A model generated the notes under the pieces. It was not told the DNA's origin. It searched no databases and was given only the letters and a program-made list of their open reading frames with translations. 32,000 bases of DNA from Candidatus Saganbacteria bacterium (GTDB lineage Bacteria > Margulisbacteria > WOR-1 > JAKLHX01), in the NCBI GenBank assembly GCA_026387835.1, contig JAPLKZ010000007.1:5284-37283 (forward strand), in the 5' to 3' direction. Positions 3,928 to 19,125 of this stretch are shown here, one piece after another. Position numbers and translations under genes: made by a program. The stretch's first letter is position 1. The number at the start of each line of letters is the position of its first letter.

Positions 3928-3954
3928 TATAATAATATGAATAAGTGTTTGTCT

Positions 3955-4037
3955 GCCGGAGTGGCGGAATTGGCATACGCGCATGACTTAGGATCATGTG
4001 CCCAAAAGGCTTGGAGGTTCAAATCCTCTCTCCGGCA
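3955..4037 (+). tRNA. tRNA-Leu, anticodon TAG, class II with long variable arm
   Basis: Hand-folded. Acceptor GCCGGAG/CTCCGGC, anticodon stem CATGA/TCATG with loop CTTAGGA, variable arm TGCCCAAAAGGCTT, T arm GGAGG-TTCAAAT-CCTCT, discriminator A. CCA is not encoded. Confidence 0.9.
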
Positions 4038-4051
4038 ATAAAGGAGGATCG

Positions 4052-4822
4052 ATGATGAAAAATAAGGTTTTGTTGATCTTTACCCTGATGATAATGTTTG
4101 CCGCGAGCGCCCTTGCCGATCATTTTAGTATCAGCTATGTTCCCGACGGGATAACAGTAAAAACTTCCGCAAAAGACAAGTCGTCGGGTAAAGCACTTTG
4201 GCAGAACACCATACAATATCAAAAAGTAAATTATAAGGGAAAGAACATGTTCTACACGCAGGAGCAGGGAAGCGGGATATACGGTCCGGACAAGACCTAC
4301 AAGAGCTGGGTGACGAGATCTTATTCGTTCCTCCAGGGGAACAGGCTTATCCCTTCCGAAGTCCAGATATTGATGAAGGACAAGAACGGGAAAGCGGTCA
4401 GGAAGATCGAAAAATATTATAACGCACAAACTGAAAGGGTCATATGTGTCGTCAACAGTAATACAAAGACATTTAATTTTAAGGACGGGATGCTGGACAA
4501 AGAAATGATGTCCGCCTGCCTTATGAATTTCCCGTTCGGCCAAAAAGACAGCATGCAGTATTATCTGCTGACGCCGGAACCCGCTGTTTATAATATGACA
4601 GTCTATTATCGAGGCAAAGAAACCCTGTCAAAAGACGGGGGTCAGATAGAATGCTATAAATTAGAAATAGTGCCGGACCTCGGCGCAATAAATATCTTTG
4701 GAGCATTCATCCCCAAGATGTATTTCTGGTATGAAACAAATGCCCCTCATGATTTTGTAAGATACGAAGGGCTTGAAAGCGGACTGGGCACCCCTTATAT
4801 CGTCATCGACAGAGAAAAATAA
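4052..4822 (+). CDS. secreted hypothetical protein (possibly DUF3108-like, uncertain)
   Basis: I moved the start to the ATG at 4052, because the longer ORF from 3998 overlaps the tRNA. AAGGAGG at 4041-4047. Signal peptide MMKNKVLLIFTLMIMFAASALA. The beta-rich Tyr/Lys-rich sequence is only weakly reminiscent of DUF3108. Confidence 0.7.
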   Translation: MMKNKVLLIFTLMIMFAASALADHFSISYVPDGITVKTSAKDKSSGKALWQNTIQYQKVNYKGKNMFYTQEQGSGIYGPDKTYKSWVTRSYSFLQGNRLIPSEVQILMKDKNGKAVRKIEKYYNAQTERVICVVNSNTKTFNFKDGMLDKEMMSACLMNFPFGQKDSMQYYLLTPEPAVYNMTVYYRGKETLSKDGGQIECYKLEIVPDLGAINIFGAFIPKMYFWYETNAPHDFVRYEGLESGLGTPYIVIDREK

Positions 4823-4840: not shown

Positions 4841-4875
4841 AAAAAGCCCCGCTCCGAGCGGGGCTTTAATATTTT
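4841..4875. terminator. bidirectional rho-independent terminator
   Basis: Stem GCCCCGC (4846-4852) / GCGGGGC (4858-4864) with loop TCCGA. It is flanked by an A-run on the left and TTTAATATTTT on the right, and lies between convergent genes. Confidence 0.8.
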
Positions 4876-4889
4876 AAGGACCTGAAAGT

Positions 4890-5762
4890 CTATATACCCT
4901 CGCCGTACCTTGTCATCCAGCAGGCTCCGACAGCTATTATTGCGACTATCGCGCTGACGATCTGCCCGAGCACCGGAACGAGCCCGATAAGAGCAAGCAG
5001 GACGATGCCCCAGATAATCTCGGTGACCATGGGCTGGTTGTAGCGTTTAAAGCTGCTGAGGAGTTTTTTCCCGATGATCTGCGACGCCGCGATATAGCCG
5101 AGCACGAGGGCCAGGCCGTAAGCGACGATCTCGACTATGATCAGCGGGATCCCCATGATGCTGACGACAAGCAGAGCGCAGATAGGTATGATCAGGATTA
5201 TCCATAGAAGGCCCCAGAGGAAAGATTTAATAGGATGTCTTTCCACGGCGACCGAGACCCATCCGACCCTTCTCGGGAACAGAAGGCCTGCCGCGATGCC
5301 GAGAGCGAGCACGCCCAGGAACGAAAGGAGCGCCGCGAACACCGTGGCCATATAGACTACCGAAGGCGCGTATTGCGTACCCAGGGCTGAGACACATGTA
5401 AATGATTGTGGCATTGTTACCTCCGTAATTTCTCCGGCGACTTTAGCGCCGGGAGCTTTTTTGACTACCCCTCCTACAGCGGCCACTTTTCCGTTGACCC
5501 TTGCGGACGGCCTTAATATTACACTTCCTCCGACCGCTACCACGTCGCCTGTCACTTCTCCCGCGACAGCGACCGATCCCCCGACCGCGACCACCGATTT
5601 GACCGTCATACCGGCCGGGACAGCGGCATTTGAACCGATCTTTATAATATCAGCGAGCACAGGTCTGTCGGAGGCAAGACTTTTACTGGATGCGGCAAAG
5701 GCGGGTAGAGCAGAGACGATCACCAAAATAAGCGAAAATGCTAAAACTCTTCTGAGATTCAT
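4890..5762 (-). CDS. membrane protein with signal peptide, bactofilin-like beta-helix repeat domain and C-terminal polytopic TM domain
   Basis: AGGAGG (complement of 5768-5773) lies 5 nt upstream of the start. Signal peptide MNLRRVLAFSLILVIVSALPAFA. Val/Gly repeats (VVAVGGSVAVAGEVTGDVVAVGGSVIL..NGKVAAVGGVV). At least four hydrophobic helices in the C-terminal half. Confidence 0.75.
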   Translation of the reverse strand: MNLRRVLAFSLILVIVSALPAFAASSKSLASDRPVLADIIKIGSNAAVPAGMTVKSVVAVGGSVAVAGEVTGDVVAVGGSVILRPSARVNGKVAAVGGVVKKAPGAKVAGEITEVTMPQSFTCVSALGTQYAPSVVYMATVFAALLSFLGVLALGIAAGLLFPRRVGWVSVAVERHPIKSFLWGLLWIILIIPICALLVVSIMGIPLIIVEIVAYGLALVLGYIAASQIIGKKLLSSFKRYNQPMVTEIIWGIVLLALIGLVPVLGQIVSAIVAIIAVGACWMTRYGEGI

Positions 5763-5797: not shown

Positions 5798-5849
5798 ATT
5801 GTACAATACGGCAGCGTTATTTGCAAGGTCGGTTTTGTTGTGGTAAAAT
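5798..5849. promoter_or_regulatory. back-to-back divergent promoters sharing one palindromic -35 hexamer
   Basis: TTGCAA at 5821-5826 is its own reverse complement. On the + strand, a 17-nt spacer leads to TGgTAAAAT (5841-5849). On the - strand, a 17-nt spacer leads to TACAAT (complement of 5798-5803). Confidence 0.5.
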
Positions 5850-5898
5850 TTCTCAAAATATCGCTGAAACACGGAAAAGGCATCCACAGGAGAAAAAA

Positions 5899-7980
5899 AT
5901 GAAGCAATACACCGCAGAAAAGATCAAGAACATCGTCATGCTCGGCCACGCGGGCAGCGGGAAGACTTCGACGGCGGAAGCGATGCTTTTTGATTCGGGG
6001 GCGACACAAAGGATGGGAAGCGTGGTGGAAGGGAACACTGTCACGGACTTTGACGCCGAAGAAATAAAAAGAAAGAACAGTGTCAGGCTGAGCCTCGCGC
6101 CGTTTGAATATAAGGATTATAAGGTCAATCTCATAGACGTTCCCGGATTTGCGGATTTTGTCGGAGAAGCGATATCGGGGATATCCGCCGCCGACTCCGC
6201 GATATTTGTCGCCTGCGCCGTCACGGGCCTTGGAGTCGGCGCTCACGAATTCTGGAGGCTCGCGGACGAAAAAAATCTGCCGAGGATCATTTTCATCAAC
6301 AAGATGGATAAGGAAAGGGCGGACTATTATACGACGCTTGATGTATTGCGGGAATCTTTCGGCAAAGACGTGGTCCCTGTCTATATACCTATAGGAAAAG
6401 AAGCTTCGTTTTCAGGGGTCGTCGATGTCCTGAACAAAAAAGCGTATAAGTTCGAGAACGGAAAATCCTCGGAGATACCCATCCCTGAAGACATGAACGG
6501 CCCGGTCGAAAAATACCGCGACATGCTCATCGAAGAGGTAGTGGAGATCGACGAGGCCCTGCTTGAAAAATTCATGAACAACGAGGAGATAAGCGACGCG
6601 CAGATAGCCGAGGCTTTTCAGAAAAGCGTGGACCACAAGCAGATCTATCCCGTTCTTTGCGGGAGCGCCGCGAAGAACATCGGAATAAACCTGCTTGCCG
6701 AAGCCGCGGAGCACTGGCTGCCGGGAGCGGACGAAATAAAGCTGCAGGGACTTGACGGCAGCGAAAGAAAACCGGCAAAGGACGAAGCTTTTTCGGGATA
6801 TATCTTTTCCACGATGATCGAGCCCCATGTCGGAGAGTTGTCTTTTGTCCGGGTGTTGTCCGGGGCGCTCAATCACTCAAGCTCGGTATACAATTCCTCG
6901 AAGAACACGTCCGAGAGGGTGGGGCAGCTGTTTTTTTTAAGAGGGAAGAACAGGGAAGAGACCCAGTCCGCGACGGCCGGGGACATCGTGGCGCTGCCGA
7001 AATTAAAAAGCACCGCCACGGGCGATACGCTTTGCGACCAGAACAGGCAGATCGTCTACAGGCCGGCCGCGTATCCAGAACCGATATTATCGATCGCGGT
7101 CAAACCAAAGTCCAAGGCCGACCAGGAAAAAATGGGCACGGCCCTGAATTCGCTGACGCATGAGGACCCTACTTTCAAAGTTTCGCATAACATCGAGACC
7201 AAAGAGACGATAATTTCCGGAATGGGCGATGTCCATCTTGAGGTGATGCTTGAACGTGTCAAAAAGAGGTTCGGCGTGGAGATCGAAGCAGGCGCACCGA
7301 GGATCCCTTACAGAGAAACGATCAGGGGAAAGGCGAAAGGCCAGGGAAAATACAAGAAACAATCGGGCGGCCGCGGGCAGTACGGCGACTGCTGGCTCGA
7401 TATAGAGCCTCTGCCGAGAGGGAGGGGTTTTGTTTTTGTCGACAAGATCGTGGGGGGAGCCATCCCGAAAAACTATATCCCGTCCATCGAAAAAGGAATA
7501 AAGGAAACGATGATAACCGGAGTGATCGCCGGCTATCAGGTGATGGACGTCAAAATAACGCTGTGCGACGGTTCTTATCACGAGGTGGATTCATCGGACA
7601 TGGCCTTCAAGATAGCGGGTTCCATGGGATTCAAAAAGACCTTCAACGACGCGATACCGATAATACTTGAGCCGATAATGAACCTGGAGATAAACGTGCC
7701 TGACGACTGCGTCGGCGATATTGTCTCCGACATAAATAAAAGAAGAGGAAAGATACTCGGAATGGACCAGGCGGCGTCAAAGCACACGATAGTAAAGACC
7801 ACCGTGCCGTTCGCGGAGGCCTCAAAATACGCGTCAGACCTGCGGTCGATAAGCCGCGGGAGGGGATATTTTTCATCAAAATTCTCCCACTACGAAGAGG
7901 CGCCCGCAAAGACCCAGCAGGAACTCAGGACAAAATACGAGCAGCTGAAAGCGGCGGGGGAACTGAGAGAGATGGCGTAA
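5899..7980 (+). CDS. elongation factor G paralog (EF-G-2-like translational GTPase)
   Basis: I moved the start to the ATG at 5899, which has AGGAG 7 nt upstream. The upstream part of the 839-aa ORF is antisense to the neighbouring gene. G1 GHAGSGKT, G3 DVPGFADF, G4 NKMD, domain IV DGSYHEVDSSDMAFKIAG. It is not in an rpsL-rpsG-fusA-tuf context. Confidence 0.88.
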   Translation: MKQYTAEKIKNIVMLGHAGSGKTSTAEAMLFDSGATQRMGSVVEGNTVTDFDAEEIKRKNSVRLSLAPFEYKDYKVNLIDVPGFADFVGEAISGISAADSAIFVACAVTGLGVGAHEFWRLADEKNLPRIIFINKMDKERADYYTTLDVLRESFGKDVVPVYIPIGKEASFSGVVDVLNKKAYKFENGKSSEIPIPEDMNGPVEKYRDMLIEEVVEIDEALLEKFMNNEEISDAQIAEAFQKSVDHKQIYPVLCGSAAKNIGINLLAEAAEHWLPGADEIKLQGLDGSERKPAKDEAFSGYIFSTMIEPHVGELSFVRVLSGALNHSSSVYNSSKNTSERVGQLFFLRGKNREETQSATAGDIVALPKLKSTATGDTLCDQNRQIVYRPAAYPEPILSIAVKPKSKADQEKMGTALNSLTHEDPTFKVSHNIETKETIISGMGDVHLEVMLERVKKRFGVEIEAGAPRIPYRETIRGKAKGQGKYKKQSGGRGQYGDCWLDIEPLPRGRGFVFVDKIVGGAIPKNYIPSIEKGIKETMITGVIAGYQVMDVKITLCDGSYHEVDSSDMAFKIAGSMGFKKTFNDAIPIILEPIMNLEINVPDDCVGDIVSDINKRRGKILGMDQAASKHTIVKTTVPFAEASKYASDLRSISRGRGYFSSKFSHYEEAPAKTQQELRTKYEQLKAAGELREMA

Positions 7981-7986
7981 GAAAAG

Positions 7987-10161
7987 ATGTCAACAAGACA
8001 ACCTTTGAGCGTTGCGTTCGTCTGGCATATGCACCAGCCCTTTTACAAAGACCTGGTGACGCACGAATATTTCCTTCCCTGGGTCAGGCTCCACGCGATA
8101 AAAGATTATTACGACATGGTCGCGTACTTGGATAGATATCCCAAAATAAGATCTGTGTTCAATATTGTCCCTTCTCTCTTCACGCAGATAGAGGATTATG
8201 TGAACGGCACGGCGAAAGACAAGTTCATGATCATGTCCCTGAAGCATCCCGAAGAACTCAGTCACGAAGAAAAGATCTTCATCCTCAAGAATTTTTTCAT
8301 GGCCAACTGGGACACGATGATAAAACCGTACCCGAGATATAATGACCTTCTGCTTAAAAGGGGCCGCTTCGTGACGCTGCACGATATAAGCCAGGTGGCG
8401 GCGCGTTTTTCAAGCCAGGAGCTTCTTGACCTCCAGGTCTGGTTCAACCTGGCCTGGTTCGGCGCGGTCTACAAGCAGAACAATCCCGCGATAAAGGGAC
8501 TTCTTGAAAAAGGGAAGAACTATAACGAGGATGACAAGAAAATACTTTTTGAAAAACAGATCGAGATAATGAGACTGATCCTCCCGAAATACAAACAGCT
8601 GCAGGAGTCGGGGCAGATAGAAGTGACCGTGACCCCTTTCTGCCACCCGATACTGCCTTTGCTCTGCAACGGCTCGGTCGCCAGGGTATCGGACCCGGGG
8701 ATCACACTCCCTAAATACAATTTTTCTTATCCCGAGGACGCAAAAAGGCAGGTGAAGGACGCGGTCGCGTATTATAAAAAGAATTTCGGGGCGGACCCCG
8801 AAGGGATGTGGCCTTCCGAAGGCTCGGTGTCGGAAGACATAATCCCGATAATCGCGGGCGAGGGGATAAAATGGATCGCGACCGACGAGGAAATATTGAG
8901 CAGCACTTTAAAAAAGAAATTATCCGCGGCGGAACTTTTCACTCCTTATATCGTCGAAAAGGACGGCTCTCAACTGACGATAATATTCCGCGACCACAGG
9001 ATATCCGACGACCTCGGATTTGTCTATGCCAAATGGGCCCCGAGGGACGCGGCCGCGGATATCGTCGGAAAATTACACAAGATAGCGGATGTTCTGCCCG
9101 ATGACGGCAGGAATTACCTCGTGAGCATCATCCTGGACGGTGAGAACGCCTGGGAATACTACCAGAACAACGGCAAGGATTTCTTTGACAACTTGTATTC
9201 CATGCTTTCAAACGATCATAGATTGCAGACGGTAAGGGTGAAGGACTTCTTAAAAGAAAATCCGCCGTCAAGCAGGCTCCAAAATCTTTTCCCCGGGTCA
9301 TGGATCAATCATAACTTCAATATATGGATAGGCCACAGCGAGGACAATCTGGCCTGGGACCACCTGTACAAAGCAAGAGAAGCTCTTTGCAAAGCGGAGA
9401 ACGCTCCTCATATCGCGTGGGATGAGCTGGCAGTGGCGGAAGGATCCGACTGGAACTGGTGGTACGGCAACGATCACAGCAGCGATAATGATGAAGACTT
9501 CGATATTCTTTTCAGAAAACATCTGATCAATATTTACCGTCTGATCGGGCAGGAGCATCCAAAACAGCTTGAGTCGCCGATAAAACAGATGAAGGTCGTA
9601 AAACCGACGAGAGAGCCGGTCTACCTGATCGAGCCGATAATCGACGGAGAGGTGTCGAATTATTATGAATGGCTGTCTGCCGGGCTGTACAGCGTGGACC
9701 AGTTCAGGGGCGCGATGCACCAGATCGAAACAGTAATAAGAAATATATATTATGGTTTCAGTACAGACACTCTGTATATCAGGATCGACACGGCGATAGA
9801 GTTGAATTGCACAGAAAATCCTGAACTGAAGTCAGTGTCGTTTGAAGTGAACATATCAAAGCCTAAACAATATAAAATAGAACTGTCATGCGACGAAAAA
9901 TGCGAAAAAAGAGTCGCGGTCTTCAAGCTGGGCCAATCAGGACAGTTCGAAAAGAAGAGCGGAATAAGCACGTTTGCCGTGAAAAAGATCATCGAGATCG
10001 GCGTGCCGTTCTCCGTTCTGGAGATCAGGCAGGGGGACGAGGTCCAGCTGAACGTTTCAGTGAAAAAAGACTGCAGGGAGCTTGAAAGCTGGCCAAAGGG
10101 CGGGATAATAAACTTCAAGGCGCCTGACGAGGATTATTTAGCATCGAGCTGGTTCGTATAG
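7987..10161 (+). CDS. GH57 family glycoside hydrolase, amylopullulanase/alpha-amylase-like subtype
   Basis: GH57 conserved regions are present: WHMHQPFY, GQIEVTVTPFCHP, WPSEGS (nucleophile Glu), LDGENAWEY (acid/base Asp), GSDWNWWYG. Confidence 0.85.
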   Translation: MSTRQPLSVAFVWHMHQPFYKDLVTHEYFLPWVRLHAIKDYYDMVAYLDRYPKIRSVFNIVPSLFTQIEDYVNGTAKDKFMIMSLKHPEELSHEEKIFILKNFFMANWDTMIKPYPRYNDLLLKRGRFVTLHDISQVAARFSSQELLDLQVWFNLAWFGAVYKQNNPAIKGLLEKGKNYNEDDKKILFEKQIEIMRLILPKYKQLQESGQIEVTVTPFCHPILPLLCNGSVARVSDPGITLPKYNFSYPEDAKRQVKDAVAYYKKNFGADPEGMWPSEGSVSEDIIPIIAGEGIKWIATDEEILSSTLKKKLSAAELFTPYIVEKDGSQLTIIFRDHRISDDLGFVYAKWAPRDAAADIVGKLHKIADVLPDDGRNYLVSIILDGENAWEYYQNNGKDFFDNLYSMLSNDHRLQTVRVKDFLKENPPSSRLQNLFPGSWINHNFNIWIGHSEDNLAWDHLYKAREALCKAENAPHIAWDELAVAEGSDWNWWYGNDHSSDNDEDFDILFRKHLINIYRLIGQEHPKQLESPIKQMKVVKPTREPVYLIEPIIDGEVSNYYEWLSAGLYSVDQFRGAMHQIETVIRNIYYGFSTDTLYIRIDTAIELNCTENPELKSVSFEVNISKPKQYKIELSCDEKCEKRVAVFKLGQSGQFEKKSGISTFAVKKIIEIGVPFSVLEIRQGDEVQLNVSVKKDCRELESWPKGGIINFKAPDEDYLASSWFV

Positions 10162-10171
10162 AGGAAAATAA

Positions 10172-12328
10172 ATGAAAAAAATAAACTTTCTGTTCGCGGT
10201 CCACTGCCACCAGCCCGTGGGGAATTTCGAGGGCGTGATAGAGGACGCTTATCAAAAGTCATATCTGCCGTTTATCAATGTCCTTGAGAAATTCCCGTCC
10301 ATCAGGATAACGGTCCACTACACGGGCGTGCTGCTTTCCTGGTTCAGAAAAAAACACCCGGAGTTCCTGAAAAGATTGAACGCGCTGGCAAAAAAAGGGC
10401 GTATAGAGATATTGACGGGCGGATATTACGAGCCGATCCTTTCGGTCATTCCCGAACGGGACAGGACGAGCCAGATCCGGAAACAGACGGCGTTCACGAA
10501 AGAACATCTGGGATATGATCCGAAGGGAGCCTGGCTTGCCGAGCGTATCTGGGAGCCCGGTCTCGTAAAAAGCCTGAGCGACGCGGGGGTAAAGTTCACG
10601 GCGCTCGATGATTACCATTTTATAAGCGCGGGGCTCGAAGAGAACGAGCTGAAAGGTTATTTTGTCACCGAAGACCAGGGATGCACTTTGGACGTGTTCC
10701 CTATAAGTAAAAAACTCCGGTACCTGATGCCGTTCAAGCTGCCGCATGAGACCATCGATCATTTAAGGGAGATCGCGACGGAAAGCGGCGACCTTGCCGC
10801 GGTGATCGCGGATGACGGCGAGAAATTCGGGGTATGGCCCGGGACGCATAAATGGGTCTATGAAGAGCGCTGGCTCGAATTGTTCTTCGGTCTTCTGGAG
10901 CAGGAGAGCGGCTGGATAAAAACGATGACGTTCTCCGAGTACAGGGAAAAATATCCCGCGAAAGGGCGTATCTATATTCCCACGGCTTCGTATTTCGAGA
11001 TGATGGGATGGTCCCTTTTTCTGAACGCGGGGAAGAAGTTCGACAAGATAGAGAACGAGATAAAAGCTTCCGGCAATTACGACAGGTACCAGCAGTTCTT
11101 TAAAGGCGGTTTCTGGAGGAATTTCTTCGTGAAATACCCGGAAAGCAACAACATGCACAAGAAAATGCTGCTGGTGTCAAGAAAGACCGAGAATGCAGCG
11201 AAGAATTTATCGATCGATACGGAAAAGATCCGCGATGAACTGATGCAGGGGCAATGCAACTGCGCCTACTGGCACGGAGTTTTCGGCGGTCTCTACTTAA
11301 ATTACCTGAGGCACGCGGTGTATGAACATCTGATAAAAGCGGAGAACCTGGCGGACGATATCATCCACCAGGGCGGAAAATGGCTGGAAGCGGAGATCGA
11401 GGATTTTGACAAGGACGGGGAAGACGAGATACTGGTCAGCACGCAGCTGATGAATTTATATTTTGACCCCGACAAGGGCGGCACCCTCATTGAACTTGAT
11501 TACAGGCCCAAATGTTTCAACCTGCTCAACACTTTTTCAAGAAGGGAAGAAGTCTACCATAAAGAGATCTTAAAACCGGAACTTCACCAGCTGACCCTCA
11601 CCGGCACGGCCGGCGGCGCGGCGAGCATTCATGACGCGGTCAGAGTAAAAGAGATCGGCCTTCAGGACCACCTGAACTATGACTGGTACAGGAGAGCCTG
11701 TTTTATCGAGCATTTTCTTGCGGAAGACACGACGCTTGAAAACTTTTCAAAAAGCAGGTACAGGGAGCTCGGAGATTTTGTCGACCAGCCTTATGTCGGA
11801 GAGGTCTCTTACGGCAGGAACGAGGTCTCGGTCATCCTGACAAGGGACGGACACGTCAAAAAGAACGGTGACAGGATACCCGTCAGGGTGTCAAAGACAT
11901 TCCTTATAACTTCCGAAAATACGGATATGGAAGTGAAATGGGAGATAAAGAACCTGAGCGACAAGCCCGTCGACCTGTGGTTCGGCGTGGAATATAACTT
12001 CTCGCTTTTAGCGGGCAACGCGCCGGACAGATACTACCTGATAGACGGCAAAAAACCGGACGATCCAAAGCTCGCGAGTTATGGACAGACTTCTGATATA
12101 TACGAAGTCAATTTGATTGACAAATGGAGCGGAATAAGTATAATTATAGATGCGGGAAAACGGTCTGACCTCTGGAGATTTCCTATCGAGACGGTCTCTC
12201 AATCCGAAGGAGGATTCGAGAGGACGTATCAGGGGTCTTGTCTATTGTCCCATTTGAAGATGAACTTGCCCGCTAACAGCTCTCAGGAATATTCGGTCAA
12301 ATTTAAGATAAAGGAAGGAGCTCGGTAA
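10172..12328 (+). CDS. GH57 family 4-alpha-glucanotransferase/alpha-amylase type with C-terminal extension
   Basis: AGAGGA RBS. GH57 conserved regions are present: HCHQP, GRIEILTGGYYEP, WLAERIWEP, ADDGEKFGVWPGT, GQCNCAYWHGVFGG. Confidence 0.85.
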   Translation: MKKINFLFAVHCHQPVGNFEGVIEDAYQKSYLPFINVLEKFPSIRITVHYTGVLLSWFRKKHPEFLKRLNALAKKGRIEILTGGYYEPILSVIPERDRTSQIRKQTAFTKEHLGYDPKGAWLAERIWEPGLVKSLSDAGVKFTALDDYHFISAGLEENELKGYFVTEDQGCTLDVFPISKKLRYLMPFKLPHETIDHLREIATESGDLAAVIADDGEKFGVWPGTHKWVYEERWLELFFGLLEQESGWIKTMTFSEYREKYPAKGRIYIPTASYFEMMGWSLFLNAGKKFDKIENEIKASGNYDRYQQFFKGGFWRNFFVKYPESNNMHKKMLLVSRKTENAAKNLSIDTEKIRDELMQGQCNCAYWHGVFGGLYLNYLRHAVYEHLIKAENLADDIIHQGGKWLEAEIEDFDKDGEDEILVSTQLMNLYFDPDKGGTLIELDYRPKCFNLLNTFSRREEVYHKEILKPELHQLTLTGTAGGAASIHDAVRVKEIGLQDHLNYDWYRRACFIEHFLAEDTTLENFSKSRYRELGDFVDQPYVGEVSYGRNEVSVILTRDGHVKKNGDRIPVRVSKTFLITSENTDMEVKWEIKNLSDKPVDLWFGVEYNFSLLAGNAPDRYYLIDGKKPDDPKLASYGQTSDIYEVNLIDKWSGISIIIDAGKRSDLWRFPIETVSQSEGGFERTYQGSCLLSHLKMNLPANSSQEYSVKFKIKEGAR

Positions 12329-13362
12329 TGCCTGAACTCAGGAAAGACCCTATTTCGGACAGATGGGTGGTGATATCGACGGAAAGAGGCAGAAGACCGT
12401 CGGATTTCAAGGCCGGCGAGGAGAAAAGCGGCAAGGAAGAGGCCAAGACCTGCCCGTTCTGCGAGGGGAACGAAACCAAGACCCCGAAAGAAATAATCGC
12501 TTACAGAAAACCGGGGACCGCGGCCGACACTCCGGGCTGGCTTGTGCGCGTGATGCCGAATAAATTCCCGGCGCTCGTGATAGAGGGAGAGGTCAACAGG
12601 ACCGGCATAGGGATATTTGACATGATGAGCGGCATCGGCGCGCACGAAGTCATAGTTGAAACACCCAGGCATAATGAGTCCATCCCTGACATGGATGATC
12701 CGCAGGTGGAAAAGGTCCTTTGGGCTTATAAAGAGAGGATAAGGGACCTTGAAAGGGATAAAAGGTTCAGGTATGTGCTCGTGTTCAAGAATTACGGGGA
12801 GGCGGCGGGCGCGTCGCTTTCACACTCGCACTCCCAGCTGATCGCCACTCCGATAACCCCAAGGTACATAAAAATGGAGCTTACCAACTCGCGGCAGTAT
12901 TTTGTGGAGAAAGAGCGCTGCATCTTCTGCGACCTGATAAGACAGGAGCTTTCTTACGGGGAGAGGATAGTCGCTGAGAACGAGAATTTTGTGGTCTTCA
13001 CGCCGTTCGCCTCGAGGTTCCCTTTCGAGGTCTGGCTGCTCCCGAGGAAGCATTATTACGGGTTCACGGAGATGAACGAGGAAGAGACAAAGCAGTGCGC
13101 CAGGATGCTGAAGGATATCCTCACACGGCTGAAAAAATGCCTTTATGACCCGCCGTATAACTATGTCGTCCACACCGCCCCGAATGTCCTTACAAGACCG
13201 GGAAGGCCCGATTACTGGGGTACGATACAATATGATTTTCACTGGCATATAGAGATAATCCCGAGGCTTACAAAAGTCGCGGGATTCGAATGGGGATCAG
13301 GGCTGTACATAAATCCGACGCCGCCGGAAGAAGCGGCAAAATATCTCAGGGAGATCATGTAA
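12328..13362 (+). CDS. GalT-type HIT-superfamily nucleotidyltransferase/phosphorylase (galactose-1-phosphate uridylyltransferase family)
   Basis: The start overlaps the upstream stop (TAATG at 12326-12330). N-terminal ELRKDPISDRWVVIS, Cys motif CPFCEGNE, active-site SHSHSQLIA (the HxHxQ motif), and a second CIFCD motif. Confidence 0.85.
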   Translation: MPELRKDPISDRWVVISTERGRRPSDFKAGEEKSGKEEAKTCPFCEGNETKTPKEIIAYRKPGTAADTPGWLVRVMPNKFPALVIEGEVNRTGIGIFDMMSGIGAHEVIVETPRHNESIPDMDDPQVEKVLWAYKERIRDLERDKRFRYVLVFKNYGEAAGASLSHSHSQLIATPITPRYIKMELTNSRQYFVEKERCIFCDLIRQELSYGERIVAENENFVVFTPFASRFPFEVWLLPRKHYYGFTEMNEEETKQCARMLKDILTRLKKCLYDPPYNYVVHTAPNVLTRPGRPDYWGTIQYDFHWHIEIIPRLTKVAGFEWGSGLYINPTPPEEAAKYLREIM

Positions 13363-13377
13363 AAGGAGGCGGTCAAA

Positions 13378-14397
13378 ATGGCAGAGAGTTCTAAACCGAA
13401 AAGAACCAGAGCAAAATCAGCCGCGCCGAAAAAAATGGCAGCCCCGAAAGCGGAAGGCATAAAAAAACCGCGGCAGAGGAAGACACAAAAAAAAGTCTCC
13501 CCGGTTGTTCAACAGACCGAAAAATCAGTCCAGAATATCCCGCAGGAAAAATCAAGGGTAGAAGAAAGCAAGTATTACGCGGGTCCGGTCATACAAAAAT
13601 TTTTCGAGGATAAAGGATATGAACTCCCGGCGGGCTACGGAGACGCGCGCATAACGCTGATGGTCCGCGATCCTTACTGGATCCACGCTTACTGGGAGCT
13701 GGCAGACTGGAAACTTGAGGAGTTGAAGTCCATGATGGGACATGATAATTTCTCAAGGTCAAAAAAGATGCTGCGCGTATATGATGTCACAGATATTAAG
13801 TTTACAGGGGTCAACGCGAACAAATCATATGATATAGATGTTTCTCACGACGCGAGGAACTGGTACATAAATCCCGGCGACCCCAACAGAAGCTACTGTG
13901 TAGATATCGGCTTCCTCGACCCGCACGGAAAGTTCTTTGTAGCCGCGCGCTCGAATGTCGTCTCGACCCCCAGGGACAGCATGTCCGATGTCATAGACGA
14001 GGAATGGCTGACAATAGACTGGGAAAGGATGTACGCGCTTTCGGGAGGGTTCGGCATAGGAAAATCATCAGGCGAGATAAAAGAGCTCCTGAAAAAAAGA
14101 TTAAGGGAAGAGATGTCCTCGGGTTTTATGGGATGGAGCGGTTCGATCACGGCAAGGCCGGAGAAGGCAAAAGATTTCTGGCTGGTCGCAAATACCGAGC
14201 TGATCGTTTACGGCGCGACAGAACCTGACGCAAAGGTCTCCATTCAGGGTCTGCCCGTAAAACTGCGGCATGACGGGACGTTCTCCATGAGGTTCGCACT
14301 TCCCGACGGCAGGCAGGAGATACCGATAGAGGCCATCAGCAGGGACGGAAACCTGAAGAGGTCAATACACAAGACAGTGGAAAAACGGACCAAGTGA
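13378..14397 (+). CDS. DUF4912-like protein with Lys/Pro/Ala-rich basic N-terminal tail
   Basis: AAGGAGG at 13364-13370. The first ~60 aa are strongly basic and low complexity. The signature ELPAGYGDARITLMVRDPYWIHAYWEL matches what I recall of the DUF4912 family. Confidence 0.75.
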   Translation: MAESSKPKRTRAKSAAPKKMAAPKAEGIKKPRQRKTQKKVSPVVQQTEKSVQNIPQEKSRVEESKYYAGPVIQKFFEDKGYELPAGYGDARITLMVRDPYWIHAYWELADWKLEELKSMMGHDNFSRSKKMLRVYDVTDIKFTGVNANKSYDIDVSHDARNWYINPGDPNRSYCVDIGFLDPHGKFFVAARSNVVSTPRDSMSDVIDEEWLTIDWERMYALSGGFGIGKSSGEIKELLKKRLREEMSSGFMGWSGSITARPEKAKDFWLVANTELIVYGATEPDAKVSIQGLPVKLRHDGTFSMRFALPDGRQEIPIEAISRDGNLKRSIHKTVEKRTK

Positions 14398-15980
14398 TGG
14401 AAAAGGGCTATCTTTCACTTGTCCTTCATGCCCACCTTCCGTATGTCAGGCATCCGGAGTTCCATGATTTTATGGAAGAGGACTGGTTTTACGAGGCTAT
14501 CACCGAGACTTACATCCCGCTTATAAACGTATTTGAGGGCCTGATAAAGGACAATGTCCCGTTCAAGATCACTGTTTCTTTTTCTCCCACTCTTCTTGCC
14601 ATGTTCCGCGATCCTCTTCTGCAGGAACGCTACATCGAGCATATCAACAAGCTGATAGAGCTTTCATATAAAGAAATAGAGCGGACGAGGTTCGAGCCGC
14701 AGTTCAACAATCTCGCGCACATGTACAAGGATAAATTCGAAAATGCCAGACACGTGTTCTGCGACAAATACCGGAGGGACCTGACGAAGGCGTTTAAATG
14801 GTTCAACGAAACGGGCAGCGTCGAAGTGATCACCTGCGGTGCGACGCACGGTTTCCTCCCCCTGATGGAAACAGCCCCGGAAGCGGCAAGAGCGCAGGTA
14901 AAGATCGCGGCCTCTTATTTCAGGGAAGTTTTCGGCAGAAGCCCTCTCGGCATATGGTTCCCGGAATGCGGATATAATCCGGGGCACGACAAGTTTTTGA
15001 ACGAAGAGAACATCAGATACTTTTTTGTGGACACACACGGAGTGCTCCACGCCTCTCCCAGGCCCAAGTACGGAGTATTCGCGCCAATATATACAAAAAA
15101 CGGCGTCGCGGCTTTCGGGCGTGATGTCGAATCATCCAAGGCTGTCTGGAGCGCTAAAGAAGGGTACCCGGGAGACTGTAATTACCGTGATTTCTACCGC
15201 GACGTGGGATTTGACCTGGACTTCGATTATATAAAACCGTATATTCATTCTGACGGGTTAAGGATAAACACCGGGATCAAATATTATAAAATAACCGGCC
15301 CCACGGACCACAAGGAACCTTACAACAGGCACTGGGCTCTTGAAAAGGCAGCCGACCACGCGGGCAACTTTTTGTTCAACAGGCAGAAACAGGCAGAGTT
15401 CCTCTGCGATTACATGGAGAAAAAACCGATCATAATATCGCCTTATGACGCGGAACTGTACGGCCACTGGTGGTTCGAAGGGCCTGATTGGCTCAACTTT
15501 TTGATAAGGAAGATAGCGTATGATCAGGACATCATAAGGCTGACGACCCCTGCTCAGTATCTTGAGGAGAATCCGAGGAACCAGGTCTCAACTCCTTCCA
15601 TGAGCAGCTGGGGGTGGAAAGGGTATTCGGAATACTGGCTTGAAGGGAGCAACGACTGGATTTACAGGTACCTGCACAAAGCCGCGGAGAGGATGACGGA
15701 GATCGCAAATCAAAATAAAGGCGCTTACGGTCAGATGGAACGGGCACTAAAACAAGCGGCAAGAGAATTGATCCTTGCGCAGGCAAGCGACTGGGCATTC
15801 ATCATGAAGGCCGGGACCGTTGTTGAGTACGCAGTTAAAAGGACAAAAGACCATATCGAACGGTTCACAAAGCTTTACGAGATGATCAAAGCAAATAATA
15901 TCGATGAAGGTTATCTTTCAGATATAGAATCAAAGGATAATCTATTTCCGAATATTGATTTTAGGGTTTACTGCTCTTAA
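14394..15980 (+). CDS. GH57 1,4-alpha-glucan branching enzyme
   Basis: The start is GTG 14394 or ATG 14397, and either overlaps the upstream TGA (14395-14397). Motifs: LVLHAHLPYV, GSVEVITCGATHGFLP, WFPECGY (nucleophile Glu), YDAELYGHWWFEG (Asp), AQASDWAF. Confidence 0.88.
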   Translation: MMEKGYLSLVLHAHLPYVRHPEFHDFMEEDWFYEAITETYIPLINVFEGLIKDNVPFKITVSFSPTLLAMFRDPLLQERYIEHINKLIELSYKEIERTRFEPQFNNLAHMYKDKFENARHVFCDKYRRDLTKAFKWFNETGSVEVITCGATHGFLPLMETAPEAARAQVKIAASYFREVFGRSPLGIWFPECGYNPGHDKFLNEENIRYFFVDTHGVLHASPRPKYGVFAPIYTKNGVAAFGRDVESSKAVWSAKEGYPGDCNYRDFYRDVGFDLDFDYIKPYIHSDGLRINTGIKYYKITGPTDHKEPYNRHWALEKAADHAGNFLFNRQKQAEFLCDYMEKKPIIISPYDAELYGHWWFEGPDWLNFLIRKIAYDQDIIRLTTPAQYLEENPRNQVSTPSMSSWGWKGYSEYWLEGSNDWIYRYLHKAAERMTEIANQNKGAYGQMERALKQAARELILAQASDWAFIMKAGTVVEYAVKRTKDHIERFTKLYEMIKANNIDEGYLSDIESKDNLFPNIDFRVYCS

Positions 15981-16000: not shown

Positions 16001-16534
16001 CTATAAGAAGCCAATCTTCCCCTTAGGTTTAATTTCTTCCTTCATCAACTGCCTTATCGCGTTGAATATGGCTATGATATCCTCGTCGTGCTTCTCGATC
16101 TTGCGCTCGAGTTCGTTCAGCTTGTGAACAAGTTCTTTATTATTTGATACCATCTGCCGGAGCTTTACAAAGGCGCGCATTATGGCGATGTTGACGAGGA
16201 TGGCGCGGTCGCTCCTTAATACAGATGACAACATCAATATCCCGTGTTCAGTAAAAGCTCTCGGAAGCTTTCTGATCCCTCCCCAACTTGATATTCCAAA
16301 ATGGAATATCAAGTTATCATATTCCTCTTTATTCAGCCTGAACATAAAGTCTCCCGGGAAACGATCTAAATTTCTTGAGACCGCTTTGTTTAGGTTAAAT
16401 GTTGTTATGTCATATAAGATAGCCAAGTCCTTATCGAACATGACTTTTTGTCCTCTGACCAAAAAGATCTTATTTTCTATGATCTCAATCGGGATCAATG
16501 CCTTACTGTCGGATTTTTCGACATTCTTTTCCAT
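16001..16534 (-). CDS. ORF6N/ORF6C-domain protein (KilA-N-related DNA-binding family)
   Basis: I moved the start to the ATG at 16534, which has AAAGGA 9 nt upstream. ORF6N-like core IENKIFLVRGQKVMFDKDLAILYDITTFNLNKAVSRNLDRFPGDFMFRLNKEE..LPRAFTEHGILMLSSVL. C-terminal coiled coil. Noticeably AT-rich. Confidence 0.8.
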   Translation of the reverse strand: MEKNVEKSDSKALIPIEIIENKIFLVRGQKVMFDKDLAILYDITTFNLNKAVSRNLDRFPGDFMFRLNKEEYDNLIFHFGISSWGGIRKLPRAFTEHGILMLSSVLRSDRAILVNIAIMRAFVKLRQMVSNNKELVHKLNELERKIEKHDEDIIAIFNAIRQLMKEEIKPKGKIGFL

Positions 16535-16641
16535 AAAACAACATCCTTTGTTCGTTATTTCAGTTTTATATGCACAAATGAGCAATTTGGATGCCACCTC
16601 CCCCTTGACCCCTAACTCCTAACCCTATACCCTATATATAT

Positions 16642-19125
16642 ATGAAAGCAATGTTAATGGCCGGAGGGTTCGGGAAACGGCTCCACCCGCTAACTACTAA
16701 TATCCCGAAGCCGCTTATTCCTGTTTGCGGTAAGCCGATAATGTTATACGTGATACAGGAATTAAAAAAACATTCTATAGACGATATCGTTGTCCTTCTT
16801 TTTCACCAGCCGAATCTTATCAAGGACTATTTCAAGGACGGCAAAGAATTCGGCGTCGAGCTTACTTATGTGACAGCCGATCAGGATTTCGGCACGGCCG
16901 GAGCAGTGAAATACGCGCAGAAATTTATTAATGAACCGTTCATAGTGATCAGCGCGGACATAATAACGGATTTTGATCTGACATCAATAATAAAATTCCA
17001 CAAGTCTAAAAAAGCTGCAGCGACAATAACTTTGACAAGGGTAGAAAATCCTCTAGAATATGGGATTGTAATCACCGGACCGGACGGCAGGATAAACCAT
17101 TTCCTTGAAAAGCCGTCATGGGGAGAAGTGTTCAGCGATACTGTTAATACGGGCATATACATATTAGAACCGGAAGTCCTTGACGATATCCCCGAAGGCC
17201 GGTTGTATGATTTCAGCATGGACCTTTTCCCGAAGATGCTCGAAGACAAAAAGAAACTGTTCGGCTGCGTGAGTGAAGGTTATTGGAAAGACATAGGGAA
17301 TTTGTTAGAATATGCTCACGTTCATAAGGATATTCTTGACGGAAAGATCGCCATTTCCGATGCCGCAGTAAGTAGCACGGCAAAAGTCTCTCATCTTGCA
17401 AAGATCGAAGGCAGGGTGATCATCGGCAGCAGAACGTCCATAGCTGACGGCGCTTACATATCGAGTTCGGTAATAGGGGAACGGTGCGCTATCGGAAGGG
17501 ACGCAAAGATCGTCAATTCCGTGATATGGGACGATGTCGAGATCGGGAAAGAGTGCAGCCTTTCAAGATGCGTCGTTGCCGACGGGGCGGTGATCCAGGA
17601 AAGGTCCGAGCTTGAAGAGGGGAGCATCGTCAGCGAGAAATGCGTTGTCGGGGCTGACTCAAAGATCCAGCCCTATATCAGGATCTGGCCGGGGAAAAAT
17701 ATCGAAGAGGGAAGCATAGTGAATTCAAGCGTTATATGGCGGCAGAGATGGTCCAAGAATATTTTCGGGCCGTACGGCATCACGGGGATATGCAATATCG
17801 AGATAACGCCGGAGTTCGCCGCGAAGCTCGGAAGCGCTTTCGGGGCGATGCTCGGCAAGGGATCGAGCGTGACAAGCTCGATGGACGGGCACAAGGCATC
17901 ACGCATGATATCGCGCGGGCTTATTTCAGGGCTGTTGTCCTCGGGAGTCAACGTTTCCAACCTTGAGATGGTCCCGAGCCCGATAAACAGGTATGAACTT
18001 AAAGCGCTTAAATCGAAAGGCGGGATCCACGTAAGAAAATCACCGTTCGACCATAATCTTATTGATATTAAATTCTTTGACGGAGACGGAATGGACCTTT
18101 CTCCGAGCAAGGAAAAATCGATAGAGAAGTTTTTCTGGGGTGAGGACTACGAGCGCCCCACGATAGACGAGACAGGAGAGCTGACATTCCCGTTCTACAG
18201 GGTGGCCGAGGGATATAAAGAAGGGCTTATCACTTTTGTACAGGCAAAAGATATCAAGGACAGAAAATATAAGGTGATAATCGATTACTCGTACGGCAGC
18301 GCTTCTTCCATCTTCCCGTCGATACTCGGACAGATGGGGTGCGATACAGTCGCGATAAACGCTTATATAGACGATTCAAAGTTCACAAGGTCAAAAGCGG
18401 AATTCGACAGGTCGCTGAAGCAGCTTTCCCAGATAGTCGTTTCGTTAAAAGCCGACCTCGGCATCCTGTTCGATACCGGAGCGGAAAAAATCTTTCTTAT
18501 AGACGAAAAGGGGAGTGTCTTAAGCGGTGACCTGGCGCTGTCCCTTATGGTCAAGCTGATGGTGATCTCGGGAGCAAAGACTATCGCGGTCCCCGTGAAC
18601 GCATCGTCCGCGGTTGACGAGATAGCCTCCGAAAAGAAAGTGAAAGTATTCCGGACAAAGACAAGCCACCGCTCCATGATGGAGACGGCGGTCGAAAGTA
18701 AAGTGGACATGTTCGGCGAGAACACGGGCGGTTATATCTTCCCGGGTTTCCAGCCGTCGTTCGATTCGATGCTTTCGACCGCGAAACTTTTTGAGCTGCT
18801 TTTAAAGCCGGAAGTCCCGATGTCGGAGATAGTTGAGTCGCTGCCGAAAAAATATCTTCTCAAAGACCAGGTCCCCTGTCCGAACGCGTTAAAAGGCATG
18901 GTGATCAGGTATATAGTAGATGAAGCGCGCGACGAAAGACCCGAGCTGATAGACGGGGTCAAGCTGCGCTTTGGAAGCGACTGGGTGCTTGTCAACGGCC
19001 ACGCGCACAAGCAGGAGATCTATATCATCAGCGAATCGGACAAAGAAGATACGGCGAGAAAGCTCATGTCGAAATATAAAGACACGATCAAAAAACTCAT
19101 TTCCGATAATCTCGGGAAGAAATAG
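16642..19125 (+). CDS. sugar-1-phosphate nucleotidyltransferase (with left-handed beta-helix) fused to a phosphohexomutase-like domain
   Basis: N-terminal GGFGKRLHPLTTNIPKPLIPVCGKPIM, followed by hexapeptide-repeat-like I/V-G-x segments. The C-terminal ~450 aa align by eye to the PGM/PMM fold (GGIHVRKSPFDHN, GILFDTGAEKIFLIDEKG, GENTGGYIFPGF). Confidence 0.8.
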   Translation: MKAMLMAGGFGKRLHPLTTNIPKPLIPVCGKPIMLYVIQELKKHSIDDIVVLLFHQPNLIKDYFKDGKEFGVELTYVTADQDFGTAGAVKYAQKFINEPFIVISADIITDFDLTSIIKFHKSKKAAATITLTRVENPLEYGIVITGPDGRINHFLEKPSWGEVFSDTVNTGIYILEPEVLDDIPEGRLYDFSMDLFPKMLEDKKKLFGCVSEGYWKDIGNLLEYAHVHKDILDGKIAISDAAVSSTAKVSHLAKIEGRVIIGSRTSIADGAYISSSVIGERCAIGRDAKIVNSVIWDDVEIGKECSLSRCVVADGAVIQERSELEEGSIVSEKCVVGADSKIQPYIRIWPGKNIEEGSIVNSSVIWRQRWSKNIFGPYGITGICNIEITPEFAAKLGSAFGAMLGKGSSVTSSMDGHKASRMISRGLISGLLSSGVNVSNLEMVPSPINRYELKALKSKGGIHVRKSPFDHNLIDIKFFDGDGMDLSPSKEKSIEKFFWGEDYERPTIDETGELTFPFYRVAEGYKEGLITFVQAKDIKDRKYKVIIDYSYGSASSIFPSILGQMGCDTVAINAYIDDSKFTRSKAEFDRSLKQLSQIVVSLKADLGILFDTGAEKIFLIDEKGSVLSGDLALSLMVKLMVISGAKTIAVPVNASSAVDEIASEKKVKVFRTKTSHRSMMETAVESKVDMFGENTGGYIFPGFQPSFDSMLSTAKLFELLLKPEVPMSEIVESLPKKYLLKDQVPCPNALKGMVIRYIVDEARDERPELIDGVKLRFGSDWVLVNGHAHKQEIYIISESDKEDTARKLMSKYKDTIKKLISDNLGKK

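Follow-up and report, generated by a model that had tools for sequence, protein, structure and literature searches.

Three GH57 enzymes, a galactose-1-phosphate uridylyltransferase (GalT)-like enzyme of the HIT family, a DUF4912 protein and an EF-G are encoded by six tightly packed genes on one strand of a Candidatus Saganbacteria contig (JAPLKZ010000007.1), within a stretch of 32,000 nucleotides that was analysed as a whole and is called the window here. The locus raises the question of which of these genes form a system, what that system makes, and what a DUF4912 protein does in it. Our reading, to which we give a probability of roughly two in three, is that the region is a Margulisiibacteriota/Saganbacteria intracellular alpha-glucan (glycogen-type) cluster in which the glucan-active enzymes are all GH57 and DUF4912 is the partner of one of them. 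The most valuable content of the locus is the pairing of DUF4912 with a GH57 branching-type enzyme of the loop-less class, which was not found in the literature searched. Searches linking DUF4912 (PF16258/IPR032585) to GH57 returned no paper, and those on GH57 with GalT, on GH57 with Rho factor and on Saganbacteria glycogen returned nothing on the pairing.

Gene content was established from the open reading frame (ORF) listing and from Pfam and NCBIfam scans of the window proteins. For comparison, 80 species-level genome loci were fetched with a DUF4912 profile and more loci were added by exact-protein look-up; the window proteins were mapped onto 91 related loci (L numbers below) with tblastn. 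DUF4912 was encoded directly upstream of a same-strand GH57 branching-type gene in 72 of the 86 DUF4912 loci. The gap between the two genes was 30 nt or less in 40 of those 72 loci, and several pairs overlapped. The pair was present in at least 10 phylum-level groups, including Margulisiibacteriota, Omnitrophota, Bacillota, Elusimicrobia, Planctomycetia, Nitrospirota, Thermodesulfobacteriota, Goldiibacteriota, Ozemobacteraceae and FCPU426. An earlier note on this DNA, made from the sequence alone, had tied both DUF4912 and the GalT-like enzyme to the GH57 branching gene; the association held for DUF4912, far beyond chance, and failed for the GalT-like enzyme, which tracks the 4-alpha-glucanotransferase instead.

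The pairing was also seen from the side of the enzyme. The sequence of the Thermotoga maritima enzyme was rebuilt from a PDB alignment and used to scan metagenome contigs, and the denominator was the 65 loci in which the upstream sequence reached 1 kb or more. A DUF4912 ORF lay directly upstream in 52/65 with the first profile hidden Markov model (HMM), and in 58/65 (89%) with a domain HMM for which 302 diverse members were used. In the three loci nearest to the Thermotoga enzyme, the gaps between DUF4912 and GH57 genes were 2-12 nt, and in the cultured Fervidobacterium islandicum (L172) and Thermosipho sp. 1063 (L173) DUF4912 was encoded 2 nt upstream of the GH57 gene. Roughly 85-90% of loci thus have the partner gene directly upstream, in 10 or more phylum-level groups and in cultured thermophiles. 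This pairing gives DUF4912, a family of more than 4,000 sequence clusters (4,223 at the 50% identity level), its first functional context. In L172 and L173, the pair is directly followed by a four-gene pyruvate:ferredoxin oxidoreductase operon.

The enzyme encoded beside DUF4912 in the window is a 528-aa GH57 protein with GH57 and BE_C domains and the catalytic motifs PECGY and DAELYGHWW. It matched T. maritima TM1438/AmyC (2b5d; E-value 1e-155), with which it shares the catalytic Glu/Asp, the BE_C domain and the lack of both flexible loop and beta5-beta6 element. Neither insertion is present when it is aligned with a loop-containing paralogue (L015:7793-9496), and ECGY and GYPGD stand 62 residues apart, a spacing that it shares with the T. 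maritima-like set. Every DUF4912-associated enzyme examined was loop-less. Xiang et al. 2021 tied the loop and the beta5-beta6 element to branching activity, and reported that 92% of 2,497 GH57 "GBE" (glycogen branching enzyme) sequences have neither, the T. maritima enzyme included (PMC9291813). The 528-aa protein therefore falls outside the 'true' GH57 glycogen branching enzymes as they defined them. The loop-less enzymes that were tested showed very low or no branching (PMC9291813). Unlike the published accounts of this class that we found, in which an upstream DUF4912 is unmentioned, the scan described above places DUF4912 next to it in most loci. GH57 branching-type enzymes are of interest both for starch modification and for prokaryotic glycogen biology.

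In the window, the pair lies within a longer run of glucan-related genes, and the features of the region are as follows.
959-2149, plus strand: histidine kinase gene.
2238-3788, plus strand: glgA, a GT5 synthase gene of the ADP-glucose type (Pfam Glyco_transf_5; TIGR02095).
3954-4038, plus strand: tRNA-Leu (Rfam scan), between glgA and the DUF3108 gene.
3998-4822 as listed, plus strand: DUF3108 gene, whose listed start overlaps tRNA-Leu.
4843-4867: strong bidirectional terminator.
4890-5762, minus strand: a minus-strand gene.
5821-5849, plus strand: promoter-like element TTGCAA-17-TAAAAT with a TG extension, 9/12 consensus positions, upstream of the EF-G gene.
5899-7980, plus strand: EF-G (NF009381, TIGR00484).
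7987-10161, plus strand: GH57 enzyme of amylopullulanase type, 724 aa (Pfam GH57; closest solved relative AaApu).
10172-12328, plus strand: GH57 4-alpha-glucanotransferase, 718 aa (GH57, AmyA-A_glucT_m and AmyA-gluTrfs_C; 1k1w).
12117-12144, plus strand: sigma-70 consensus TTGACA-16-TATAAT, 12/12, a possible internal promoter.
12328-13362, plus strand: GalT-like enzyme, a class I GalT-family HIT enzyme of the At5g18200 type (1z84/2h39).
13378-14397, plus strand: DUF4912 protein (Pfam), with two beta-sandwich domains.
14394-15980, plus strand: GH57 branching-type enzyme of the loop-less class, 528 aa (GH57 and BE_C; 2b5d).
16001-16597, minus strand: ORF6N-domain gene (Pfam ORF6N; PADLOC PDC-S05).
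16642-19125, plus strand: fusion of NTP_transferase, LbH and phosphoglucomutase/phosphomannomutase (PGM/PMM) domains (domain scans; PDB matches).
After the fusion gene: the housekeeping genes uvrB, dapA, RNase J and recG.

Gene order in Margulisiibacteriota relatives indicated where the system begins and ends. Their common order is GH57a (amylopullulanase type), GH57gt (4-alpha-glucanotransferase), GalT-like, DUF4912, BE (GH57 branching-type), the nucleotidyltransferase/PGM fusion and GlgA. This seven-gene order was complete and contiguous in L001, L004, L009 and L090/L091, and it was kept up to the contig end in L005, L007 and L088/L089. The fusion gene directly followed the branching-type gene in L001, L003, L004, L005, L009 and L088-L091. 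The idea of a self-contained unit at 5821-15980, put forward in the earlier note, was accordingly abandoned, since the relatives' unit runs on into the fusion and the GT5 synthase. The window departs from its relatives twice: an ORF6N gene splits the unit, and the cluster-type GlgA is missing. In L001, a gene for an 89-aa CBM48/AMPK1_CBM protein (9724-9993) lies between the GalT-like and DUF4912 genes.

All three GH57 proteins belong to the family (Pfam PF03065, E-values 1e-36 to 1e-63), and alignment with solved homologues bore out the claim that each keeps the nucleophile Glu and the acid/base Asp. The 718-aa protein matched the Thermococcus litoralis 4-alpha-glucanotransferase (1k1w) with an E-value of 7e-157. 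It combines PF03065, PF09094 and PF09095 with both catalytic motifs of the T. litoralis type, WLAERIW and ADDGEKFG (T. litoralis Glu123 and Asp214), and we class it from these features as a GH57 4-alpha-glucanotransferase. The best solved relative of the 724-aa protein was AaApu (9jlq/8zyi), with an E-value of 7e-90 across residues 7-514. AaApu is the recently solved GH57 amylopullulanase of Aquifex aeolicus, with the dyad Glu256/Asp352 (PMC12106739); equivalents of both residues are present in the window protein (MWPSE, ILDGEN), which we take to be a probable amylopullulanase-type GH57. The 724-aa protein also has a C-terminal extension of about 210 aa (residues ~515-724) with no Pfam match. 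The extension is kept in Margulisiibacteriota relatives and is absent from the Aquifex enzyme; Omnitrophota homologues are without it and align only to residue 532. The three enzymes thus stand as an alpha-glucan module of debranching/amylase, disproportionating and branching types, much as had been predicted.

The rival that survives best is that the pair of DUF4912 and loop-less GH57 does not branch glycogen but acts on a different product derived from alpha-glucan, for example an oligosaccharide, a polymethylated glucan of the glycolipid type or a compatible solute. Xiang et al. suggested a role of this kind for loop-less enzymes, and the low activity of the tested members, in a family of which 92% is without loop and beta5-beta6, would fit it (PMC9291813). 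The Thermotogota pair stands away from other glycogen genes, beside the oxidoreductase operon mentioned above. In Bacillota loci, the pair has a gene for a loop-containing enzyme beside it, and two glycogen-branching enzymes there would be redundant. Against this, the genes around the Margulisiibacteriota pair encode a glucanotransferase, a fusion that forms NDP-sugar (nucleoside diphosphate sugar) and a GT5 synthase, and the cluster has no further branching enzyme. Unrelated metagenomic loci also have cluster homologues close to the pair: in the sample scanned, 11 loci have GlgA near it, 7 the nucleotidyltransferase/PGM fusion, 6 GH57a and 4 GH57gt. Moreover, branches at a level of about 6% are indeed formed by the enzymes of T. 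maritima, Petrotoga and Kosmotoga (PMC9291813). We consider this other-product reading unlikely and retain the glycogen-type cluster as the preferred one. The Bacillota-type loci in question (L015, L023, L026, L050 and L057) carry a second, divergently encoded GH57 gene beside the pair, whose product is about 33% identical to the window enzyme, and a convergent nucleotidyltransferase/PGM fusion gene downstream. The second GH57 of L015, the sole one aligned, has both insertions, so that both classes of branching enzyme occur in one locus.

The DUF4912 protein itself carries no catalytic signature. Its AlphaFold model consists of a disordered basic N-terminus, a beta-sandwich at residues 88-200 (predicted local distance difference test, pLDDT, >93), a helical linker and a second beta-sandwich at residues 272-338 (pLDDT ~90). 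Foldseek matched FN3/Ig-like folds and the polysaccharide-associated scaffold RbmA, with E-values of about 1e-5. The invariant positions of the family are rich in Trp and Tyr; the invariant aromatics include W101, Y105, W106, W162, Y163 and W210 in the numbering of the window protein. A Glucodextran_B match was found in the C-terminal domain of all 55 aligned homologues, and a Rho_N domain at the N-terminus of 12 of the 55. A PDB sequence search gave no match even at E <=1, and the PADLOC scan gave none. The sole functional remark that we found calls DUF4912 a "Rho-like" protein conserved in Cyanobacteria (PMC13613805). The beta-sandwich model, the FN3/Ig matches and the tandem arrays described below are compatible with glucan binding, without being diagnostic of it.

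In several respects DUF4912 resembles the CBM48 of GH13 branching enzymes and the plant PTST scaffolds. It is an aromatic-rich beta-sandwich that occurs in tandem arrays, and it is encoded beside a carbohydrate enzyme in which Pfam recognises no carbohydrate-binding module (CBM), as is the case for the 528-aa GH57. Unlike those partners, it has no sequence match or specific fold match to any CBM family. We infer from the model and the gene pairing that DUF4912 is probably a partner without catalytic function, serving the loop-less enzyme for binding or as an adaptor. A further, tentative proposal is that the loop-less GH57 class has in DUF4912 its missing subunit and would look near-inactive in vitro since it has been assayed without this partner, whose gene lies directly upstream and would often be translationally coupled. 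We hold this to be doubtful; if true, loop-less enzymes supplied with DUF4912 would become efficient branchers or would show their true substrate. Direct fusion of DUF4912 to an enzyme was considered and rejected: no enzyme domain was found in the 10 longest of the 150 best-scoring representatives, and long representatives show only tandem repeats, Rho_N, Glucodextran_B or longer N-termini. In P0241 (1471 aa) 10 DUF4912 domains follow one another in tandem, and in P0316 (824 aa) 3; no further domain was recognised in either. The Thermotogota DUF4912 proteins (L172, L173) are without the C-terminal Glucodextran_B-like domain.

The supply of nucleotide-sugar was examined next to the synthase genes. 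The absence of GlgC, GlgP and GH13 enzymes that had been claimed for the window holds across the 20 large ORFs scanned, and rmlA_long at 30380-31444 encodes a dTDP-glucose enzyme, not GlgC. The fusion protein joins a sugar-1-phosphate nucleotidyltransferase with an LbH domain to an archaeal-type PGM/PMM. Its nucleotidyltransferase half scored 126 bits with the GlgC model TIGR02091, for which the cut-off is 425, and is thus not GlgC; the best solved match was a UTP-glucose-1-phosphate uridylyltransferase, followed by mannose-1-phosphate guanylyltransferases. The fusion enzyme is a conserved cluster member and the probable supplier of NDP-glucose. The glgA gene lies 2.1 kb upstream of the cluster, as had been noted, and its product is a GT5 synthase of the ADP-glucose type (TIGR02095, 361 bits; cut-off 328). 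It is cut off from the cluster by tRNA-Leu, the DUF3108 gene, the strong bidirectional terminator and the minus-strand gene, and forms a separate transcription unit. The window GlgA is only 29-32% identical to the cluster GlgA of L001, L004, L009, L088 and L090, whereas the remaining cluster proteins are 45-86% identical to those of relatives.

The GalT-like protein was more closely related to Arabidopsis At5g18200 (1z84/2h39; E-value 5e-76, 259 bits, full length) than to Escherichia coli GalT (E-value 6e-26, 94 bits). It keeps the CPFC zinc motif (Cys-x-x-Cys) and the SHSHSQ active site with the nucleophilic His (HxHxQ), as does At5g18200. The structure 1Z84 is that of At5g18200, an ADP-glucose phosphorylase (bioRxiv 10.64898/2026.09.13.751320). 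Unlike the plant protein, the window enzyme is bacterial, is encoded within a glucan cluster and has a GH57 4-alpha-glucanotransferase as its partner. The bacterial relatives of the plant ADP-glucose phosphorylase, like DUF4912, gain a first functional context from the pairing described here. The equilibrium of At5g18200 reportedly lies towards ADP-glucose breakdown, with an equilibrium constant (Keq) of 5-40 towards glucose-1-phosphate, and the enzyme is said to be without GalT activity, in work reported by McCoy and colleagues in 2006. Because the HIT enzyme is a homologue of the At5g18200 type and this reported equilibrium favours ADP-glucose breakdown, it is an unlikely supplier of nucleotide-sugar. 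Of the two suppliers suggested earlier, the fused nucleotidyltransferase is therefore the better candidate.

The neighbours of the GalT-like gene point to a different partner from that of DUF4912. In 10 of the 11 distinct other contexts examined, it comes directly after a gene for a GH57 4-alpha-glucanotransferase; only L085 is without this partner. In L083/L084 and L086/L087 the full cluster is absent, and the GalT-like gene still lies 15 nt after a GH57 4-alpha-glucanotransferase gene; there the transferase is just 30% identical to that of the window and the GalT-like protein 64-66% identical. In L158 the order is GH57 4-alpha-glucanotransferase, GalT-like, GlgA. Since the GalT-like gene is kept beside the 4-alpha-glucanotransferase gene outside the full cluster, it appears to be coupled to the disproportionating enzyme and not to the branching one. 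The most economical reading is that it is a putative NDP-glucose phosphorylase linking the nucleotide-sugar and glucose-1-phosphate pools.

We find it very improbable that the GalT-like protein is an ordinary Leloir galactose-1-phosphate uridylyltransferase that came to lie in the cluster by chance. Public records do give it that label, it passes the TIGR00209 galT model (134 bits; cut-off 102), and its HxHxQ motif and zinc site are those of a Leloir class I GalT. Its nearest relatives are, however, not the characterised GalTs, as the bit scores above indicate; neither galK nor galE turned up in the window or among the listed related loci, At5g18200 reportedly has no GalT activity, and a GH57 4-alpha-glucanotransferase gene precedes it almost everywhere.

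As a putative NDP-glucose phosphorylase, the GalT-like enzyme invites comparison with malPQ and with the 4-alpha-glucanotransferase and MalP of T. litoralis, where the gene of a disproportionating enzyme also lies beside that of a phosphorolytic enzyme yielding glucose-1-phosphate. Unlike malPQ, which pairs amylomaltase with maltodextrin phosphorylase, the partner here is homologous to a nucleotide-sugar phosphorylase of the HIT family, an enzyme unable to attack glucan itself. A low-probability and speculative extension, drawn by analogy, is that the GalT-like enzyme together with the GT5 synthase running in reverse might form a phosphorylase-independent route from glucan to glucose-1-phosphate. 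If true, this would explain the pairing with the 4-alpha-glucanotransferase, in the fashion of malPQ.

From the gene identities, catalytic residues, conserved gene order and pairings, we propose the following activities, reaction directions and role for DUF4912, all of them predicted. The PGM half of the fusion would convert glucose-6-phosphate to glucose-1-phosphate, and the nucleotidyltransferase half would convert this to NDP-glucose. The GT5 synthase would extend alpha-1,4 chains, and alpha-1,6 branches would be introduced by the loop-less GH57 branching-type enzyme together with the DUF4912 protein, which may serve as its glucan-binding or adaptor subunit. For turnover, the amylopullulanase-type GH57 would cut or debranch the glucan and the GH57 4-alpha-glucanotransferase would disproportionate the resulting oligosaccharides. 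The GalT-like enzyme, at the junction of synthesis and turnover, may catalyse ADP-glucose + phosphate <-> ADP + glucose-1-phosphate, and most likely returns nucleotide-sugar to glucose-1-phosphate. Such a system would resemble the classical glgBXCAP operon in clustering the functions of glucose-1-phosphate activation, GT5 polymerisation, branching, debranching and disproportionation. Unlike that operon, with GlgC-GlgA-GlgB synthesis and GlgP-GlgX degradation, the window holds no GH13 enzyme, GlgC or GT35 phosphorylase. Its glucan-active enzymes are all GH57, activation would be by the PGM-nucleotidyltransferase fusion, and there are two additional conserved members, DUF4912 and the ADP-glucose phosphorylase homologue.

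Several points weigh against this model. The remaining 14 of the 86 DUF4912 loci, all from Planctomycetota (including L040 and L064), have no adjacent GH57 gene, which suggests that the partner was relocated or that the role of DUF4912 is different there. The DUF4912 fold is a generic FN3/Ig fold with nothing specific to glucan binding, and a glucan-binding role does not explain the basic tail or the Rho_N domain. The fusion enzyme is ambiguous in its nucleotide specificity, with matches to a uridylyltransferase and then to guanylyltransferases, and uvrB takes the place of the cluster-type GlgA after the fusion gene of the window. The physiological direction assigned to the GalT-like enzyme depends on kinetics that McCoy and colleagues are said to have reported for the plant enzyme. 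Finally, Xiang et al. propose that loop-less GH57 enzymes are not glycogen branching enzymes (PMC9291813). The DUF4912 genes of Planctomycetota have an ATP synthase a subunit gene and ABC/MacB-type genes among their neighbours.

The first gene of the run, encoding EF-G, was assigned a start at ATG 5899 and not at TTG 5461. The protein scored 909 bits with NF009381 and 705 bits with TIGR00484 (cut-off 659). Its similarity to canonical proteins was moderate (598 bits to Thermus thermophilus EF-G and 502 to its EF-G-2), the best NCBIfam model was the PRK12740 subfamily, and the gene lies outside a ribosomal-protein (str) context; it may be a second copy. EF-G had no match anywhere in the 91 related loci, and in 80 further loci there was a single incidental match, 2.6 kb away. 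In L090/L091, where the GalT-like protein is 84% identical to that of the window, a divergent prolyl isomerase gene precedes the cluster in place of EF-G. Since the adjacency is not conserved, EF-G is an accidental neighbour, an unrelated gene that in this lineage came to stand 6 nt upstream of the cluster, with which it may share a transcript but has no functional link. The membership in the glucan system that had been claimed for it is thus withdrawn. Tight packing on one strand behind one upstream promoter-like site, no clear internal terminator and the lack of a GlgC-type protein in the window had led the earlier note to see all six genes, EF-G included, as one system in which the HIT enzyme replaces GlgC in supplying nucleotide-sugar, a model to which we give the slimmest chance of all, given that EF-G is missing even in a relative with a GalT-like protein 84% identical to that of the window, that the HIT enzyme is a homologue of an ADP-glucose phosphorylase whose equilibrium reportedly favours phosphorolysis, and that the conserved cluster includes a nucleotidyltransferase/PGM fusion dedicated to this step.

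The gene that interrupts the unit on its other side is likewise foreign to it. The ORF6N gene matched the PADLOC candidate defence family PDC-S05 (E-value 7e-57) and had no homologue in any of the 91 related loci. In relatives with the fusion gene, that gene begins no more than about 70 nt after the branching-type gene; in the window the ORF6N gene separates the two. Its stretch has a low GC content (41%) and contains a perfect 14-nt inverted repeat at 16285-16315, and no convincing flanking or target-site repeats were found around the insertion. The ORF6N gene was inserted between the branching-type and fusion genes and is outside the glucan system.

The layout described earlier for the six genes at 5899-15980 was correct in every junction. 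The gaps are 6, 10, -1, 15 and -4 nt: 6 nt separate the EF-G stop at 7980 from the GH57 start at 7987, 10 nt lie between 10161 and 10172, TAATG overlaps at 12326-12330, and 15 nt with AAGGAGG before the DUF4912 start lie between 13362 and 13378. At 14394-14399 (GTGATG), the TGA stop of DUF4912 overlaps the GTG or ATG start of the branching-type gene. The promoter-like site before EF-G is present as described, and no convincing plus-strand terminator was found within 5899-15980, only stems of 5-6 bp. With one strand, short gaps or overlaps and no strong internal terminator, the six genes look like a single operon. The domain calls made for the window proteins were likewise borne out by the Pfam and NCBIfam scans. 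The Rfam scan of the window matched tRNA-Leu only, and the overlap of the listed DUF3108 start (3998) with it implies that the true start of that gene lies further downstream.

A perfect TTGACA-16-TATAAT match at 12117-12144, overlooked before, lies upstream of the GalT-like start, at a distance of 211 nt. Of the simulated 32-kb windows, 0.7% contained a match as good as this, and the consensus recurs at 12/12 in L004 and at 11/12 in L001 and L005. It could be an internal promoter giving a second transcript. Since the two hexamers coincide with conserved codons (for I/V-D-K-W and for a hydrophobic strand), their conservation is inseparable from coding constraint, and independent conservation of this promoter was rejected as a conclusion. 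A second sigma-70 consensus, matching at 11/12 positions, lies at 17032-17059 on the plus strand, inside the coding region of the fusion gene.

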